A DNA stretch of 62,586 nucleotides, filler included, from Malassezia furfur (Eukaryota), in the NCBI GenBank assembly GCA_052055015.1. It is 11 parts of 11 records of this genome, joined end to end, with 100 filler letters (N's around TTAATTAATTAA, not from the genome) between each part and the next. Parts side by side here need not be neighbours in the genome. Positions count along the whole stretch, not along the records: positions 28,746 to 34,354 come from JBQJIT010000588.1; 10 more parts are not named here. The stretch is one strand, 5' to 3'. The notes beneath the pieces were generated by a model. The model did no database searches, was not told the origin of the DNA, and saw only the letters and a list, made by a program, of their open reading frames with translations. The stretch's first letter is position 1. Each line of letters begins with the position of its first letter. A program made the position numbers and the translations under genes. Below, piece after piece: positions 28,746 to 59,107 of the stretch.

Positions 28746-29994
28746 CATGGTCCACGTCGAGGAACAGGTCGAGCGCGTGGATCAGCGTGCTCTGCCCGGC
28801 ACTCGGGCCGGTCCACAGCGAGGGCTCCGTCGCGGCGCCCTCGAGGACCCAGCCGGGCGCACGGCCCGCGGGCGTCGAAGTATACATCGCGTCGCCCGTC
28901 TTGAACCACGGGCGGATCTGCCAGTAAAAGGTGGTGGGGTCGCATCCGTCGCGCATCTGGCGCAGCAGCGCCGTCAGCTTGCGGATGACCTCGGCGAGCT
29001 CCTCGAGGTAGCACGCAATGCGCTTCTCGGCGAGCTCGTCGACAGCGAATGCCTCGTTGAGCGACACGCGCATCAGCGTGAGCGCCTCGACACCTTGCAG
29101 CTCAATGAGCAGCGAAATGTAGTAAAAGTGCGCCTCGGACGGCGTGTTGGTAAACGTCTCTTGGATGCGCATGTTGCTCGGCACCATGCCGCGCGCAGGG
29201 TCGATCAGCGTCCAGTTCCACAGCACCGTCGTAGCGTACGTCAGCACGGGCGGCAGGCCCAGCCGGTCGCTCACCGCGACAAACGGCACGGCCAGCGACG
29301 CAGGCAGGCGGCCAATGTAGGCGGCCTCGTCGTTCGCCACCCGCCGCGCCGCGCCCCACCGCGCAAACCACCCGGTGGGCGGCTGCGCGGCGCTCGCTAC
29401 GGCCGCGGCCTTGTCGGCATCGGCCTCGTACTGGCCCACGTCGGGCTGCGCATGCATGTAAAAGTGCGTCAAAAACGCCAGGACCACACACGCTCGGCGC
29501 GCGGTCCGAATGTCGTCCAGCTGCTGTGCCGTAAGCGAGATCAGCGGCATCGCCCGGATCGCTTCGCGCCATCGGCGCGCCTCTTCACGCTGCGCCAGCG
29601 ATTCGTACCGATCGCCAATCTCGAGGGGGATGGACTTGGCCCAGTCCAGCATACCCTCCCACAGCGAGGGGGTCGCAGTGTCGTACGACGTGTGCTGCAC
29701 GTCGTAGGCAGGGCCCGCAAGGCGCTCCAGCGGAGGCTCGGGCGGTAGAAAGCCCGAACGCACATCCACGTCAAAGTCGGCCGCAGCCAAGGTCGAAGTA
29801 TCCGGGCGGCTGTCGGCAGGCCGCGGCGTCGAAGCCGCCTTGGGCATCCGGCGACTCAGGCCCGCCAGGATGTCGCGGGCGCTCCCTGCCGGCGCTGCCG
29901 GCGAACCATGCAGACTACTGCATTCTGCGTGTGCATTCGTGCACTCCCGCTCGGGCTCCCGCGCCAGAAAGTGGCCTGGCTGGATCGCCGACAT
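28746..29994 (-). CDS. BNA2: Indoleamine 2,3-dioxygenase (3' truncated; start 29994 or 29847)
   Basis: 'FDVDVRSGFLPPEPPLERL', 'LGLPPVLTYATTVLWNW', 'FYWQIRPW', 'GPSAGQSTLIHALDLFL'. Confidence 0.9.
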
Positions 29995-30090
29995 CGCCGT
30001 GGTGAGAACACAACCGGCTCCACAAAATTCTCGGCACAGTTTTATCGGGCCACCGCCTCCCGAGGTCCAGACATGAAAAAAGGTGCCCCA

Positions 30091-30570
30091 AAGACAAAAA
30101 TGAAATACTAATATGAAATACTATTACAAATGCATATCTATTTTAAATACAGAAACACTATTAAACGAAAACAAAACACTTTTATCTTAAAGATATTATA
30201 AAATAAAAGAAATTATATTGTAATAGAACTACGGTAAATAATAGATACATATAGATATTTATATTAAATATATTTAATCTATTACTAACTATAAAAACTA
30301 ATAAATACGATAAATCTAAATTATAATAAACAATTGTATGTTAAAGTTTAAATATTATGTTTATCTCTCAAAGTTTATATTTGATGGTTTGATAAATGAT
30401 TATTATAATGATATGGAGTAAAATATAAAATATATAAAATATAAATGTGTATTTTATTTTATATTAATAGTTTAAACCTTTTAACGCAGATATTTCATCG
30501 ATCGTTTACACTATTTATGATTTATAATAGTTGAACTATACTTTACTATATTTAAAAAGACTAATTATCT
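30091..30570. other. AT-rich island, putative centromere core
   Basis: Hand count of 81 G+C in 480 nt (about 17% GC) in a ~65-70% GC window; no ORF; sharp borders; matches the published description of Malassezia centromere cores as short GC troughs. Confidence 0.8.
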
Positions 30571-30649
30571 TTGTTCAGATTGGGTCTTCTGCGCCTCCTG
30601 TGGGGTAGGGAAACCGATTACGTCAAGTGGAACTTGGGCTTGCATTAGC

Positions 30650-32024
30650 ATGTGTCGACTCCTGGGTACGTGCCTGTCATGGTAACCTCGGCGACAGAGC
30701 TAACCTCGCACAGTGTTCAAAGGCACAGAGCCTATTCTCCTCTCTCATTTGCTCACACGCCCGGCGCACAGTATCATCAACCAGGTACGTTGGGCGGTCG
30801 ACCCTGCCTCCCTCCTGATACTGACACGGTATGCCAGGCGTTCGACTCACGTCTTCGCATCGACATGAACCGGCCCATCAATGTAGGTCCGGAGCAATAT
30901 GGATGGTGGCTGACACTGCTAGGGTGATGGTTTCGGTGTCGGCTGGTATGACTCGACGTGGGACTCGGAGCTCGGCGAGGCACCGTGCATCTTCACCAGT
31001 GTGACGCCCGTACGTACCCAAGGGGGGAACAGCCAGAGACTAACCTCAGGCGTGGAATAACGTCAACCTGCATCGTATTGCGGAAAAGATCAAGAGTCCC
31101 CTGGTCTTGTGCGTGTGCCCCCCTCGGAACGCTAACGGACAGTGGTCATGTACGGGCCTCGACGGCAGGGGCGCTGAGCGAGACCAACTGCCACCCCTGG
31201 CGCTATGGCCGGCTGATGTGGTGCGTACGCGTGTGCTTACCGCAGGATGCACAATGGCCAGATTTCGCAGTTTTCCAAGATCAAGCGGCGTCTGCTGGCG
31301 GCGCTGCCCGAGCCGCTGTTCCTGTGGCCCCAGGGACACACGGATTCCGAGTTTGCCTTTGCGCTGTTCCTAAGCCACCTGGGCAACCCCGAGAGCATGG
31401 ACGAGTTTAGCTACCTCGAGCTCAAAGATGCGATGCTCAAGACCATCCAAAACCTCAACCAGTGGTCGCAGGAGGCCAACATCCAGGAGCCGAGCCTGAT
31501 GAACTTTTGCGTGACGGACGGCAAGAGCATTGTCTGCACGCGCTACGTGTCGAGCAAGGTGGACGAGGCCGCGAGCCTGGTATGTGGGCGGTTGCTGACG
31601 CCAGTACTTTTCGACGGGCACGTCGTTCTACGAACACTCGGAGGGGGCCTACCGCATGGTCAAGGCCGACCGGCGGCAGAAGATTGTGGTGGTGGCGAGC
31701 GAGCCCCTCACGTTTGAAAAAGGTGCGTATGGCACACACTGATGCGCAGCGGACTGGATGGAGATTGAGTCCAATACGATCCTGTGCGTTACGCCCAACA
31801 TGAATGTGCTGCAATACCCCATCATCGACGAATACCACACCCCGCGCACGAATGCGCCTGCGCGCAACCCCGACTTTGCGATGCGCGCTGGCTTCCATTC
31901 GAACGCGCACATTCCCCCCGAGCTTCGGGAGGAGCTTCCGACCGACTCAGCGTCGCTCCAGTGCGATGCAGCGTATGCGTCCGACTTTCCGCTAGAGACG
32001 TGCGCGCGCCCCGTAGCTACATAG
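30650..32024 (+). CDS. DUG3: Class II (Ntn) glutamine amidotransferase Dug3; 9 exons, introns 30666-30713, 30785-30837, 30883-30922, 31010-31049, 31109-31142, 31221-31245, 31580-31604 and 31723-31749
   Basis: The spliced product reads 'MCRLLVFKGTEPILLSHLLTRPAHSIINQAFDSRLR..PINGDGFGVGWY..TPAWNN..FGHVRAST..NCHPW..WMHNG..GHTDSE..VASEPLT'; Cys2 nucleophile present. Confidence 0.92.
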
Positions 32025-32091
32025 GCTCTATGTGGAGGAATGCGCAAAAGGGGCCATTTCCCGCCTACGAGCGACGTTGGCGTGAGCGAGG

Positions 32092-32830
32092 ATGCATCCT
32101 GCGCTGTTGATCTTTTTGGTGTCGCTGGTGAACCAGACCATTACGTGGCTGGGCCGCGACAAGCTGCAGGAAGTGGTGCGTATGCGCGGCGAGCTCACGC
32201 AGTGTTACAAGCTGTATGCGCGCGTCGTGAACTACTCGGCGTACCGCAAGCTGAACGCGTCCAAGAAGGAGCTGTTTGCGACGCGGCAGGAGATGAATGC
32301 GACGAGTGCGCAGGACCAGTTCGCAAAGTGGGCGAAGCTGCGGCGAAAGGTGGACAAGCTGACGAGCGAGGTGGAAGCGCAGAGTGCGTACGGGGGTGTG
32401 GGCTGACGCAGACAAGGTGATTTCCTCGGGCCAGTTCTTCTTTTCGCTGCTGTTCAAGGCGCTGATGTTTGTGCTGAACATGGCGATCCCGTGGATGCTG
32501 TCGTCCTACTTCAGCAAGACGCCCATGTTCTACCTGCCGCCCGGCGACTGGTTCGGCCCGCTCGGGTACGTGTTCTCGTTTCCCAAGGCGCCCGTCGGTG
32601 CGGTGAGCACGACGGTGTGGACGATGGTGTGCGGGCGTGTGCTGTCGCTGGTGGGCGCGTACTGCCGCGAGGTGTTTGTGTCCGACCCCGTGCTGGATGC
32701 GCCGGTGGCCGAGGCGCCGGTGGCCGAGAAGCCGGTGGCCGAGGCGCCGGTGGCCGCCGCGGGCGCGGACGAGAAGGGCGGCGCGGCGGATGCGGCGCGC
32801 ACGCTGCGGGCGCGCAAGGCGGCGACGTAG
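32092..32830 (+). CDS. GET1: GET pathway ER insertase Get1/WRB; introns 32176-32202 and 32384-32411
   Basis: N-terminal TM segment, 'TSAQDQFAKWAKLRRKVDK' coiled coil, 'PMFYLPPGDWFGP..FSFPKAPVGAVS'. Confidence 0.92.
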
Positions 32831-32897
32831 AACGACCAGAGAGTAGTGGCTTCTCGATTCGCTATGGGGTGGTGGATCGGGTCGGCGCCGCGCGTAT

Positions 32898-33503
32898 TTA
32901 CAAGCGTGCGCGCATCGACGAGCCGATGCTGTACGCGTTCATGTCCTCGTTGAAGTCTTCCGGCTGCTTCGTCGCGCCGGTGGTGTCGTTGGCGGCGACG
33001 CGGTACAGCTTGGAGCGCTCGTGGCTGAGCACGCGCGAGATTTCGAGGGCCTTGTCGAGCTTGCCGCGGATCTTGAGGCGCTTGGCCTCGTACAGGGTCG
33101 TTGCGCGAGCCTTGCCCGTGGCGATGTCGACCAAGTCGCGGTCGCTGCACTCGATCACGATCTCGGCGCGGCGGCGGCGGCCAAGGAGCGTCGTCGGCGG
33201 CTTGCCGCGGCCGACGTCGATCGTCTTGTTGGTGATGTACAGGTACCACGTCTCCGGGATGAGGCGGTGGCGGTTCGCGGGGTGGTGCTTCCCCGTGGAC
33301 GACACGTCCGAGGGGTGGATCACGAACAGGTAGAGCGACGCGAGGTGCCGGCGCAGGTACGCCGGCGAGGGGAAGTTGGGCGGCGGCTTCGCGAGGAAGA
33401 GCGCGGTGAGGGCAAACACCTTGCTGGCCTCGAACCCAGGCGCATTGAGGTGCGGGTACACGGACAGGGCGTGGTTCGCGATCGGCTGCACGGCATCGGA
33501 CAT
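32898..33503 (-). CDS. SCP2 sterol/lipid-transfer domain protein with PTS1-like C-terminus (ARL)
   Basis: 'AEIVIECSDRDLVDIATGK..LYEAKRLKIRGKLDKALEI' fits the SCP2 fold signature; ends 'MRARL*'. Confidence 0.75.
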   Translation of the reverse strand: MSDAVQPIANHALSVYPHLNAPGFEASKVFALTALFLAKPPPNFPSPAYLRRHLASLYLFVIHPSDVSSTGKHHPANRHRLIPETWYLYITNKTIDVGRGKPPTTLLGRRRRAEIVIECSDRDLVDIATGKARATTLYEAKRLKIRGKLDKALEISRVLSHERSKLYRVAANDTTGATKQPEDFNEDMNAYSIGSSMRARL

Positions 33504-33658
33504 GGTGATGAAGGTGGTGATCCCCGGAGCCGGACGGGCGCCCGGCGCAGCCCCACGCCACGGTGCGCCGGGGCCACGCCGTCCCCACGCCCGGGTGCTG
33601 ACCCCCGCTCACCTAAGCGCCACGTGCGGCTTGGCGGGCCCTCCTGTGCGCGACGGCC

Positions 33659-34354
33659 ATGGGCGACCTCGCGGCGCGCGTAGCGGCGCTCGAGGAGGAG
33701 AAGCGCAAGCTTCTGTCCAGCTGGCAGCGCGAGCGCGACGAGAATGCACACACAAGAGGTACGTCGGCGCGCCTGACCCAGACGAGCTCGCCGCGCTCAC
33801 GGCGCGCAACCAGTCGCTGCGCACGGAGCTGGCGCAGTCGGCGCGTGCGCTCGAGGCAGCCCAGGGCGCCGAGCACACGAGCGAGGTGCGTTGGCGCTAC
33901 GGGCCCTACTTACGCAGTTCAAGGCGCGTGCGCTCGAGCAGCAGCTCGCGCTTGCGCGCGACGACACCGCGTGGGCGCGCGCCGAGCTCGCCAAGGAGCA
34001 CGAAGCAAGTGCGTCGGCGCGCGCGGAGCTGTCGGCGCGCCTGACGCGCGCCGAGACCGCGCTCGAGCTCGTGACGCAGGAGCGGCAGAGCGCCGCGGCG
34101 CAGCTCGCGCACGTCGAGCGTGCGCTCGCCGATGCACAGGCGCGGCACACCGACGTCGCCGAGCGTCTTGCGGCGCTGCAGACGTCGTCGGCCGCCGACG
34201 CACAGGCCGCGCGCCTCGAGCTCGACACGCTGCGCCGGAGCGTCGCGCTGAGCGACGCGCGCGTCGAGCATGCCGAGCAGCGCGCCGCACAGCTCGAGAC
34301 GGCGTGCGACGAGCTGGTCGCGCAGTGCGGCGCGCGCGAGGATGCGGCGCAGCG
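33659..34354 (+). CDS. MLP1: Nuclear basket coiled-coil protein Mlp1/TPR, N-terminal fragment; introns 33759-33781 and 33886-33917
   Basis: Continuous coiled coil after splicing; 'FKARALEQQLALARDDTAWARAEL' resembles the Mlp1/TPR LxQExELxxxxxxWxxxEL motif. Confidence 0.65.
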
Positions 34355-57814: not shown

Positions 57815-59107
57815 ATGGCGTCCGAGTATGCGGACGTGCTGACGAACCAGCCGGTGGTGATCGACAATGTACGCCGTGCACCACTCACCACAGGGATCGG
57901 GCACCATCAAGGCAGGCTTTGCGGGGCAGGATACGCCGAAATGTTTCTTCCCGAACTTGTACGTCCGCACCTCCCCACATGCTCACCCAGCGTCGGGCGG
58001 CCCAAGCATGTGCGCGCCATGGCCGGCGCCGCCGAGGGCGATCGGTTCATTGGACGCTCGGCACAGGAGCTGCGTGGCCTGCTCAAAATCCGGTACCCGA
58101 TGGAGCACGGCATCGTGACTGACTGGGCGGACATGGAGCGCATCTGGAGCCACATGTACACCGACGAGCTCAAGACCCTCAGCGAAGAGCACCCCGTGCT
58201 CCTCACCGAGGCGCCGCTCAACCCGTGCGCGAACCGTGAACAGGCCGCTCAGATCTTCTTCGAGACGTTCAACGTGCCGGCCATGTACGTGAGCATCCAG
58301 GCGATCCTCAGTCTGTATGCGTCCGGGCGCACCACAGGTGTTGTGCTCGATTCGGGCGATGGTGTAACGCACGCCGTGCCCGTCTACGAGGGGTTTGCGA
58401 TGCCGCACGCAATCCAGCGCATCGACGTCGCGGGGCGCGACGTCGCACAGCACCTCCAGACACTCCTGCGCCGCGCAGGATACTACCTGCACACCTCGGC
58501 AGAACGCGAAATTGTGCGGGCCATCAAGGAGCAGCGATGCCAGCTGGCGCTCCCGGGGCACGACGACCACGACACCAAGCGGCCCGTCGAGTTTGCACTG
58601 CCGGACGGCAACGTGATCAAGCTCGGCGGGGAGCGTTTCCGGGCACCCGAGGTACTTTTCCGCCCGGAGCTGGTCGGACTCGAGGACGTCGGGGCGCACC
58701 AGATTCTCGCGGACGCCATCGCGCGCGCCGACATGGATTTGCGGCGTGGACTCTACGGGAACATTGTCCTGAGCGGCGGCACAACGCTCACGAAAGGTAG
58801 GCACGCGCTACTCACTCGCTAGGCTACGGCGATCGGCTGCTGCACGAGACGAAGCGACTTGCCCCGCCCGATCTCAAGATCAAGATCTCGGCCCCGCCGG
58901 AGCGCAAGTACTCGACGTGGATCGGCGGAAGCATTTTCGCGGGGCTGAGCACCTTCCGCAAGGTACGTTGGCGGTGCCGCACGCGACTGACCGCGCGCAG
59001 CTGTGGGTCTCGGCAGAGGAGTACCAAGAGGACCCCGACTGCATTCACAAGGTAGGTACGCACCGCCGCCAGGCCCGATGGCTTACACTTGCGTCTAGAC
59101 GCTGTAG
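57815..59107 (+). CDS. ARP1: Actin-related protein 1 (centractin); introns 57869-57893, 57959-57990, 58797-58822, 58963-59000 and 59052-59098
   Basis: Spliced '[42 protein letters not shown]', '[16 protein letters not shown]', '[15 protein letters not shown]'. Confidence 0.92.

Follow-up and report, generated by a model that had tools for sequence, protein, structure and literature searches.

The window analysed here (62,586 nt of the Malassezia furfur assembly GCA_052055015.1, which comprises 13.7 Mb in 1,856 contigs) is made up of 11 contigs joined by N spacers, so that most of its genes are not neighbours in the genome. One of these contigs, G000:C588 (window 28746-34354), carries an intronless indoleamine 2,3-dioxygenase (IDO) gene on the minus strand (28747..29994, truncated by the contig end), which forms the left flank of an AT-rich core (30090..30581, 492 nt, 17% GC). 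To the right, the plus strand carries the class II glutamine amidotransferase gene DUG3 (30650..32024; 9 exons, 360 aa), whose 5′ end lies 68 nt from the core, and GET1 (32092..32830), with introns of 27 nt (32176-32202) and 28 nt (32384-32411). They are followed on the minus strand by an SCP2-domain gene (32898..33503), which is intronless here and in M. globosa and has three introns in lineage L021; its protein falls into the same cluster as named M. furfur proteins. GET1, a name that we partly presume and that goes with a PF04420 match on the fused annotation P0021, is without two further introns present in the L021 orthologue. Gene names used here are presumed from sequence features, except for DUG3, IDO, SCP2, CHO2/PEMT, the histidine-phosphatase (GPM1) family and GATA_AreA.

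The DUG3 protein starts with MCRL and thus has the N-terminal Cys of the Ntn fold. It is 68-81% similar to named DUG3 proteins (81% to that of M. vespertilionis), and exon 7 alone gave a PF13230 match below the cut-off in the profile search (E=1.5e-4). We found that its eight plus-strand introns become shorter away from the core. Intron 1 (30666..30713), 84 nt from the core, measures 48 nt, intron 2 (30785..30837) 53 nt, introns 3 (30883..30922) and 4 (31010..31049) 40 nt each, and intron 5 (31109..31142) 34 nt; intron 6 (31221..31245), 639 nt from the core, is of background length with 25 nt, as long as intron 7 (31580..31604), and intron 8 (31723..31749) has 27 nt. The same assembly holds the locus a second time, at C519 with 88% identity, and all eight introns are present there, with lengths of 47, 51, 40, 34, 32, 25, 21 and 27 nt, and the indels between the two copies are confined to introns or the core. 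Two such diverged copies are consistent with the hybrid nature of M. furfur described in parts of PMC9040865 and PMC13405305. Removal of the predicted introns yields an open 360-aa frame, and all eight positions recur in orthologues. The intron numbers and lengths given for DUG3 by the first-pass annotation are therefore borne out by the open frame, the second copy, the orthologues and a self-trained gene finder, which also recovered its two GET1 introns exactly. Its description of the surroundings was likewise accurate: 38 of the 39 other genes in the window have 0-2 introns, as it had said of most genes, with ARP1 having five, and 13 of the 20 introns of other genes fall into the 21-26 nt range that it gave for most of them. 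The ARP1-like gene (57815-59107), on a contig without a core, has introns of 25, 32, 26, 38 and 47 nt, the long ones lying at the 3′ end.

The AT core is the lowest-GC bin of the window and fits the description of Malassezia centromere cores (AT-rich, <1 kb, at the GC minimum, 15-27% GC in M. furfur); enrichment of a 12-bp AT-rich motif, published as a logo, is a further mark of such cores. The qPCR primers published for MfCEN3 (PMC7025860) both have exact matches, at 29998-30014 (plus) and 30060-30075 (minus), and the same source gives CENP-A ChIP values at MfCEN3 of 0.76-1.32% input against 0.035-0.087 for the control. Judged by these primer sites, the AT island beside DUG3 is MfCEN3, a CENP-A-validated centromere (ChIP in another strain), and the centromeric character previously ascribed to it is upheld.

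Pattern searches returned at least 13 non-mitochondrial-looking candidate core contigs, 11 of them with cores of 455-616 nt and 17-24% GC. Among the matches listed, and in a fragmented assembly, these 11 cores represent 7 distinct loci (four two-copy, three single), 7 being the number expected in M. furfur at one per chromosome. C291 carries the published MfCEN2 primers and C248 those of MfCEN7; of the published core and flank primers tried for the cores of other lineages, none matched. C54 and C110 were rejected as centromere cores; C86 and C480, which hit density alone marks as probably mitochondrial, were left out. C54 is a 40-kb contig with ~45% GC over the whole part read (L007, G000:C54:8950-18949), unlike the remainder of this genome, and is possibly foreign or subtelomeric. 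For the cores on C248, C446 and C396, a second copy was absent within 2.5-3 kb on each side; the single-copy state of these three of the seven loci possibly reflects loss of heterozygosity in the hybrid.

At MfCEN2 (L011:5046-5928 on C291 and L015:5030-5907 on C299), a 218-aa gene, which we take to be O-acetyltransferase-like, runs with its last three exons and their introns ~260 nt into the AT core. Its frame is intact in both copies, with a GC3 of 0.17-0.22 in the core-edge exons and 15-35% GC in the introns. Because a published MfCEN2 CENP-A primer lies within its last exon, working coding DNA would appear to sit in centromeric chromatin.

On its left side, MfCEN3 shows a synteny break, as read from gene order: IDO is the left neighbour of the DUG3 core in M. 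furfur, but another gene stands there in M. globosa and L035. In M. globosa the core is flanked on the left by a block of TMED-like, unknown and eIF3L-like genes, the last name being presumed; in M. furfur this block adjoins HSP70 (G000:C414:3143-8638, L160/L161) and IDO takes its place at MfCEN3.

Intron length was then related to core distance across the genome. The background was taken from 52 stretches of 10 kb on every seventh contig from C2 to C359 (~4% of the assembly; score at least 8), and genes were modelled ab initio by a gene finder self-trained on 75 sequences (727,512 nt), which recovers DUG3 and GET1 exactly. In two-copy genes 59 of 60 introns match the partner intron, the partner being no independent check for the several near-core models that were hand-curated with its help. 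Curation removed, as false predictions, a 46-nt intron on C291, a 232-nt intron on C446 and introns of 30 and 40 nt on C173, reset a 46-nt call on C180 to 34 nt and remodelled three genes. The background comprises 411 introns with a median of 25 nt. With each locus represented by a single copy, 19 introns lie within 500 nt of a core; they belong to 8 genes, come from 6 of the 7 loci and have a median of 40 nt, and 15 of these 19 are at least 34 nt long against 54 of the 411 (Fisher p=7e-10); the seventh locus has no intron within 500 nt. Mean length is 46 nt at 0-250 nt from the core, 37 at 250-500, 29 at 500-750, 26 at 750-1000 and ~24-27 beyond 1 kb, and three introns inside a core have 23-40 nt (mean 32). 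With the core as a proxy for low recombination, the Spearman correlation of length with distance is -0.63 (n=71) and -0.57 (n=66) in the two copy sets. The lengthening is also present in the second copy set and with uncurated calls, and without DUG3 11 of 15 near-core introns are still at least 34 nt long (p=1e-6). Moreover, when pseudo-cores were placed in 293 background gaps, none of 200,000 draws reached the 14 long introns observed (null mean 1.0).

A generic first-intron effect was rejected, since background medians are flat by intron ordinal (25, 25 and 25 nt for the first, second and third) and near-core introns are also long in genes that face the core with their 3′ ends (28, 39, 40, 23, 33, 58, 35 and 44 nt). 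The proposal that the gradient is tied to the centromere is thus sustained, other core-flanking genes sharing the trend. We consider the positional gradient of intron length to be real with high confidence, and it is general in the M. furfur genome, in either gene orientation and in both subgenomes.

Across all predicted introns the branch point is CTNAC, whose third place shows no preference for a purine, and about two thirds have the donor GTACGT, GTAAGT/GTATGT-type donors being commoner near cores. Long introns in the background are enriched in genes with high-expression codons (rho 0.22, p=1e-5; a codon-based proxy); they occur in genes that we presume to be GPM1, RPS18, RPS5, QCR7, CPR1 and YDJ1.

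Base composition changes toward the cores as well, on a separate scale. GC at 4-fold sites (GC4) is 0.24 within the core and then 0.60, 0.71, 0.74, 0.78, 0.79, 0.85 and 0.89 outward, rising from 0.60 to 0.89 over 2 kb, and synonymous-site GC drops toward every core, in agreement with the reduced GC reported in the first pass. For M. sympodialis, a local dip in GC3 has been reported before at every core (PMC5389616, in part). In DUG3, GC3 is 48/69 in exons 1-4 against 122/143 in exons 7-8 (p=0.01), with 64/87 in exon 9, the last. All six A/T-ending codons singled out before (CGA, ACA, CCT, ATT, TCT and CAT) do occur in exons 1-4, but the near-uniform G/C ending claimed for genes elsewhere was overstated: the background gene median of GC3 is 0.81, and over the first 73 codons GC3 is 0.70 or less in 24% of 214 background genes. 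The low GC3 at the 5′ end of DUG3 is therefore real but modest. At three centromeres (L009/L008, L011/L015, L012) the GC trough is asymmetric, one arm staying at GC4 0.55-0.75 for 3-4 kb and other arms recovering within ~1 kb. We found that intron length decays over 321±55 nt and GC4 over 912±92 nt, and because these scales differ, the single zone of about 1 kb that had been proposed for both effects is inadequate. GC4 contributes little once proximity is modelled (-5.7±4.3), and in the background, intron length and local GC4 show no correlation (rho -0.02). Long introns are commoner at low GC4 (13/71 against 13/197, p=0.008). Low GC as a sufficient cause was rejected, as introns in the low-GC background stretches L117, L128 and L103 are mostly 21-28 nt and L138 is intronless.

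A metagenome scan for DUG3 gave 65 loci, 22 of them intron-bearing fungal genes (L019-L040). Four other Malassezia lineages have nine DUG3 introns, namely the eight of M. furfur and one at codon 200, which the M. furfur lineage lost. A partial gene 99% like that of Tilletiopsis washingtonensis (L040) has 11 introns of 50-59 nt, six at M. furfur positions. As the eight positions are common to orthologues, they were inherited and local gain is excluded; DUG3 intron number appears to be mostly ancestral. The DUG3 proteins P0007/P0122 (a cluster of 9) and P0006, on genomic contigs of up to 213-266 kb, can each be read from codon 6 onward without a break in the frame. Loss of every intron except the first is thereby suggested for the P0007/P0122 lineage (88% like M. 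cuniculi) and for the smut relative P0006. Within 500 nt of cores we counted 19 introns against 6.6 expected, and at 5-20 kb 32 against 18, the counts being overdispersed. The near-core excess of ~2-3-fold is suggestive (gene-level p=0.11, permutation p=0.047). At least six introns were found in 3 of 14 core-adjacent genes against 3 of 294 others (p=0.001), two of the three having been completed by hand. Relative to L021, four lineages kept 35 of 36 intron slots in DUG3 and ~17 of 33 in its neighbours, in imperfect alignments of related lineages. The idea that the centromere shields introns from loss is thus weakly supported; the eight DUG3 positions are ancestral, and one of nine introns was lost in the M. 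furfur lineage. The M. globosa gene presumed to encode eIF3L has a 42-nt 3′ intron 150 nt from the core, absent from the M. furfur gene, which now lies away from the core, and the M. furfur gene has a 24-nt 5′ intron absent in M. globosa (n=1, unpolarised).

In the other lineages, which have lower GC, introns were called by spliced alignment with doubtful calls omitted by hand, and the near set (within 550 nt) is almost all DUG3, with 5-6 near and 7-14 farther introns per lineage. Near and farther introns average 42.5 and 31.4 nt in L037 (p=0.007), which is M. globosa by exact protein match, 41.6 and 27.1 nt in L035 (p=0.002), 44.8 and 40.8 nt in L021 (p=0.046), and 32.8 and 31.3 nt in L030 (p=0.06). 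The DUG3 gradient is therefore strong in M. globosa and L035 and faint in L021 and L028/L030, although the gene is core-adjacent there too. Among the Malassezia genes surveyed, no DUG3 away from a centromere was found: the upstream sequence is AT-rich in all four other lineages, and a full core with both flanks was seen beside DUG3 in L033, L035 and L037 only.

For the cause of the gradient, we favour, at a probability of roughly 45%, suppression of deletions linked to recombination or repair beside the kinetochore, which would have preserved ancestral intron lengths (between-copy indels being unpolarised). In the M. furfur lineage, ancestral introns of ~40-45 nt would have been cut down to ~24 nt by small deletions associated with recombination, gene conversion or the repair of double-strand breaks. 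Such events would be suppressed by the kinetochore in its immediate flanks, and near-core introns may thereby have stayed close to the ancestral length, with a donor consensus that is less derived, and may perhaps have survived in greater number. The wider GC trough would come from a broader and weaker block on inter-homologue conversion, and the long DUG3 introns would be neutral relics serving no DUG3 function. Near-core M. furfur lengths resemble those of L021 (~41 nt everywhere) and L040 (50-59 nt); the agreement with L021 as a whole speaks for retention while introns were shrinking across the lineage. Longer introns go with lower recombination in vertebrates, and a recombination-linked deletion bias has been described (PMC3342960, in part); the budding yeast kinetochore suppresses double-strand breaks over ~3 kb on each side and crossovers over ~20 kb, according to passages of PMC4749563. 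Several points stand against suppressed deletion. Length and GC4 decay on different scales, and GC4 adds little beyond proximity; introns of L028/L030 have ~31-33 nt right up to the core and those of L021 are almost flat; and long introns also cluster off-core, for example in highly expressed genes. In addition, Malassezia centromeres and their flanks are called breakage-prone in parts of PMC7025860 and PMC10410736, and recombination in M. furfur is described in passages of PMC13405305 as parasexual, meiosis not being shown.

A tentative alternative is that CENP-A chromatin shifts the local mutation spectrum, with AT-biased and insertion-prone replication or repair, so that flanking introns were expanded. 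The length zone of ~0.5-0.7 kb matches the fall-off of CENP-A, which at MfCEN7 is about tenfold lower at 750 bp from the core (0.10-0.30) than within it (1.1-2.9), with a control of 0.035-0.087 (PMC7025860, in part). The AT-rich exons and introns inside the MfCEN2 core edge, in both copies, fit this reading too, as does the mean of 46 nt at 0-250 nt, which exceeds the L021 background of ~41. However, introns inside cores are shorter (mean 32) than those just outside (46), although AT pressure peaks inside, and near-core introns outside the core have 54% GC, close to the background 57%. Moreover, flank divergence is barely raised: between the copies, intron substitutions amount to 0.29 in the flanks and 0.26 in the background, and length change per nt to 0.045 and 0.035. 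With divergence near normal, flank hypermutation was rejected and faster mutation is excluded as the cause.

We regard selection on splicing as an unlikely cause. It supposes that introns of 21-25 nt splice poorly in CENP-A-rich, H3-depleted chromatin and that longer ones were kept, as in highly expressed genes, where the background long introns do seem to concentrate by the codon proxy. Lengths are stable between subgenomes, and both the stretch from 5′ splice site to branch point and that from branch point to 3′ splice site are longer near cores (downstream of the branch A, 10 nt at 0-250 nt against 5.9), as such selection would have it. The near-core genes, however, score under the background median on the expression proxy (0.42-0.74 against 0.77), and their donors are weaker rather than stronger, with C at +4 in 8 of 19 near-core introns against ~69% of the background (p=0.02).

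More doubtful still is a gene-specific or chance pattern, made of generic 5′-long introns, an intron-rich conserved gene or a prediction artefact. This reading holds for DUG3 intron number, given nine conserved positions in other Malassezia and 11 in the partial Tilletiopsis-like gene, and the near-core signal does come from only 8 genes with ab initio models, several of them hand-curated. For length it is largely refuted, as all 8 near-core genes have a median of at least 33.5 nt (against 11% of 222 background genes), all 6 intron-bearing cores have a median of at least 37 nt (against 6% of 178 pseudo-cores), there is no ordinal effect, and introns are almost all partnered. Least probable is Hill-Robertson interference, in which selection for compact introns is weakened near centromeres: the weaker near-core donors and an amino-acid divergence of 0.16 at 0-250 nt accord with it, but divergence is only 0.05 at 250-500 nt, a range in which introns remain long, and linkage effects should reach beyond 0.3 kb in a yeast that is largely clonal.

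If the footprint of CENP-A and the kinetochore acts as a force separate from GC-biased conversion, intron length in compact Malassezia genomes could be its sub-kilobase fossil record, and clusters of long introns would map live and dead centromeres alike; we put this forward as speculative. The divergent GPM1-like and GATA_AreA genes at L141:4715-7584 (G000:C338; partner L163 on C316) have introns of 33-59 nt in 6 of 6 cases and a conserved gap of 310 nt. The locus shows, in both subgenomes, a GC4 trough of 0.50-0.54 at the nearest gene starts and no AT core. On the fossil-record reading it would be a candidate, equally tentative, for one of the two inactivated centromeres of M. furfur; a cold spot of another kind or an effect of expression could equally account for it. 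Bearing on this candidacy, M. cuniculi and Malassezia sp. CBS 17886 have CHO2 on the same chromosome as DUG3, and in M. vespertilionis CHO2 is on Chr2.

Parts of this pattern have precedents. The short regional centromeres of Malassezia include MfCEN3 itself and, in M. sympodialis, the GC3 troughs noted above (passages of PMC7025860 and PMC5389616). In Pelagomonas calceolata, the available part of 10.1101/2021.10.25.465678 reports more introns in low-GC centromeric genes and credits this to fewer double-strand breaks and gene conversion, the hypothesis that the first-pass annotation had also put forward; there, however, regions of ~259 kb have shorter introns (120 against 214 nt), whereas the M. 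furfur zone is under 1 kb, its introns are longer and its density excess is marginal. The vertebrate relation (PMC3342960, in part) likewise has longer introns at low recombination, for which the core is the proxy in M. furfur, but it is chromosome-scale, whereas ours runs within one gene, over ~0.3 kb and among introns of 21-60 nt. Passages on yeast describe a GC drop toward the centromere in GC3s troughs (PMC2997560) and Ctf19-dependent suppression of double-strand breaks and crossovers on two nested scales (PMC4749563); the troughs span 100-300 kb and the suppression 6-40 kb, whereas the M. furfur scales are ~1-4 kb for GC and, for intron length, less than 1 kb. The word intron is absent from the main text of PMC7025860 and PMC10410736, passages of PMC5389616 do not relate introns to centromeres, and, in the portions available, PMC8476143 does not contain the word centromere and PMC11185503 treats intron length genome-wide only. 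Searches of the literature outside subscription journals listed no description of an intron-length gradient linked to centromeres, either in Malassezia or at sub-kilobase scale. The M. furfur gradient is an unusually fine-scaled form of a known relation.

Neutral recombination-linked deletion and selection, as forces in genome shrinkage, are usually studied at megabase scale, with many confounders. In M. furfur the contrast (~45 against 24 nt) lies within single genes, beside mapped centromeres, in two subgenomes and in several species, including lineages with a faint gradient, and such a within-gene contrast at mapped centromeres makes its cause directly testable. Intron length seems to mark, at sub-kilobase scale, where genome shrinkage is held back. 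This suggests that the evolutionary reach of the kinetochore in Malassezia is a few hundred bases only, and that the kinetochore may act separately on intron length and on GC.
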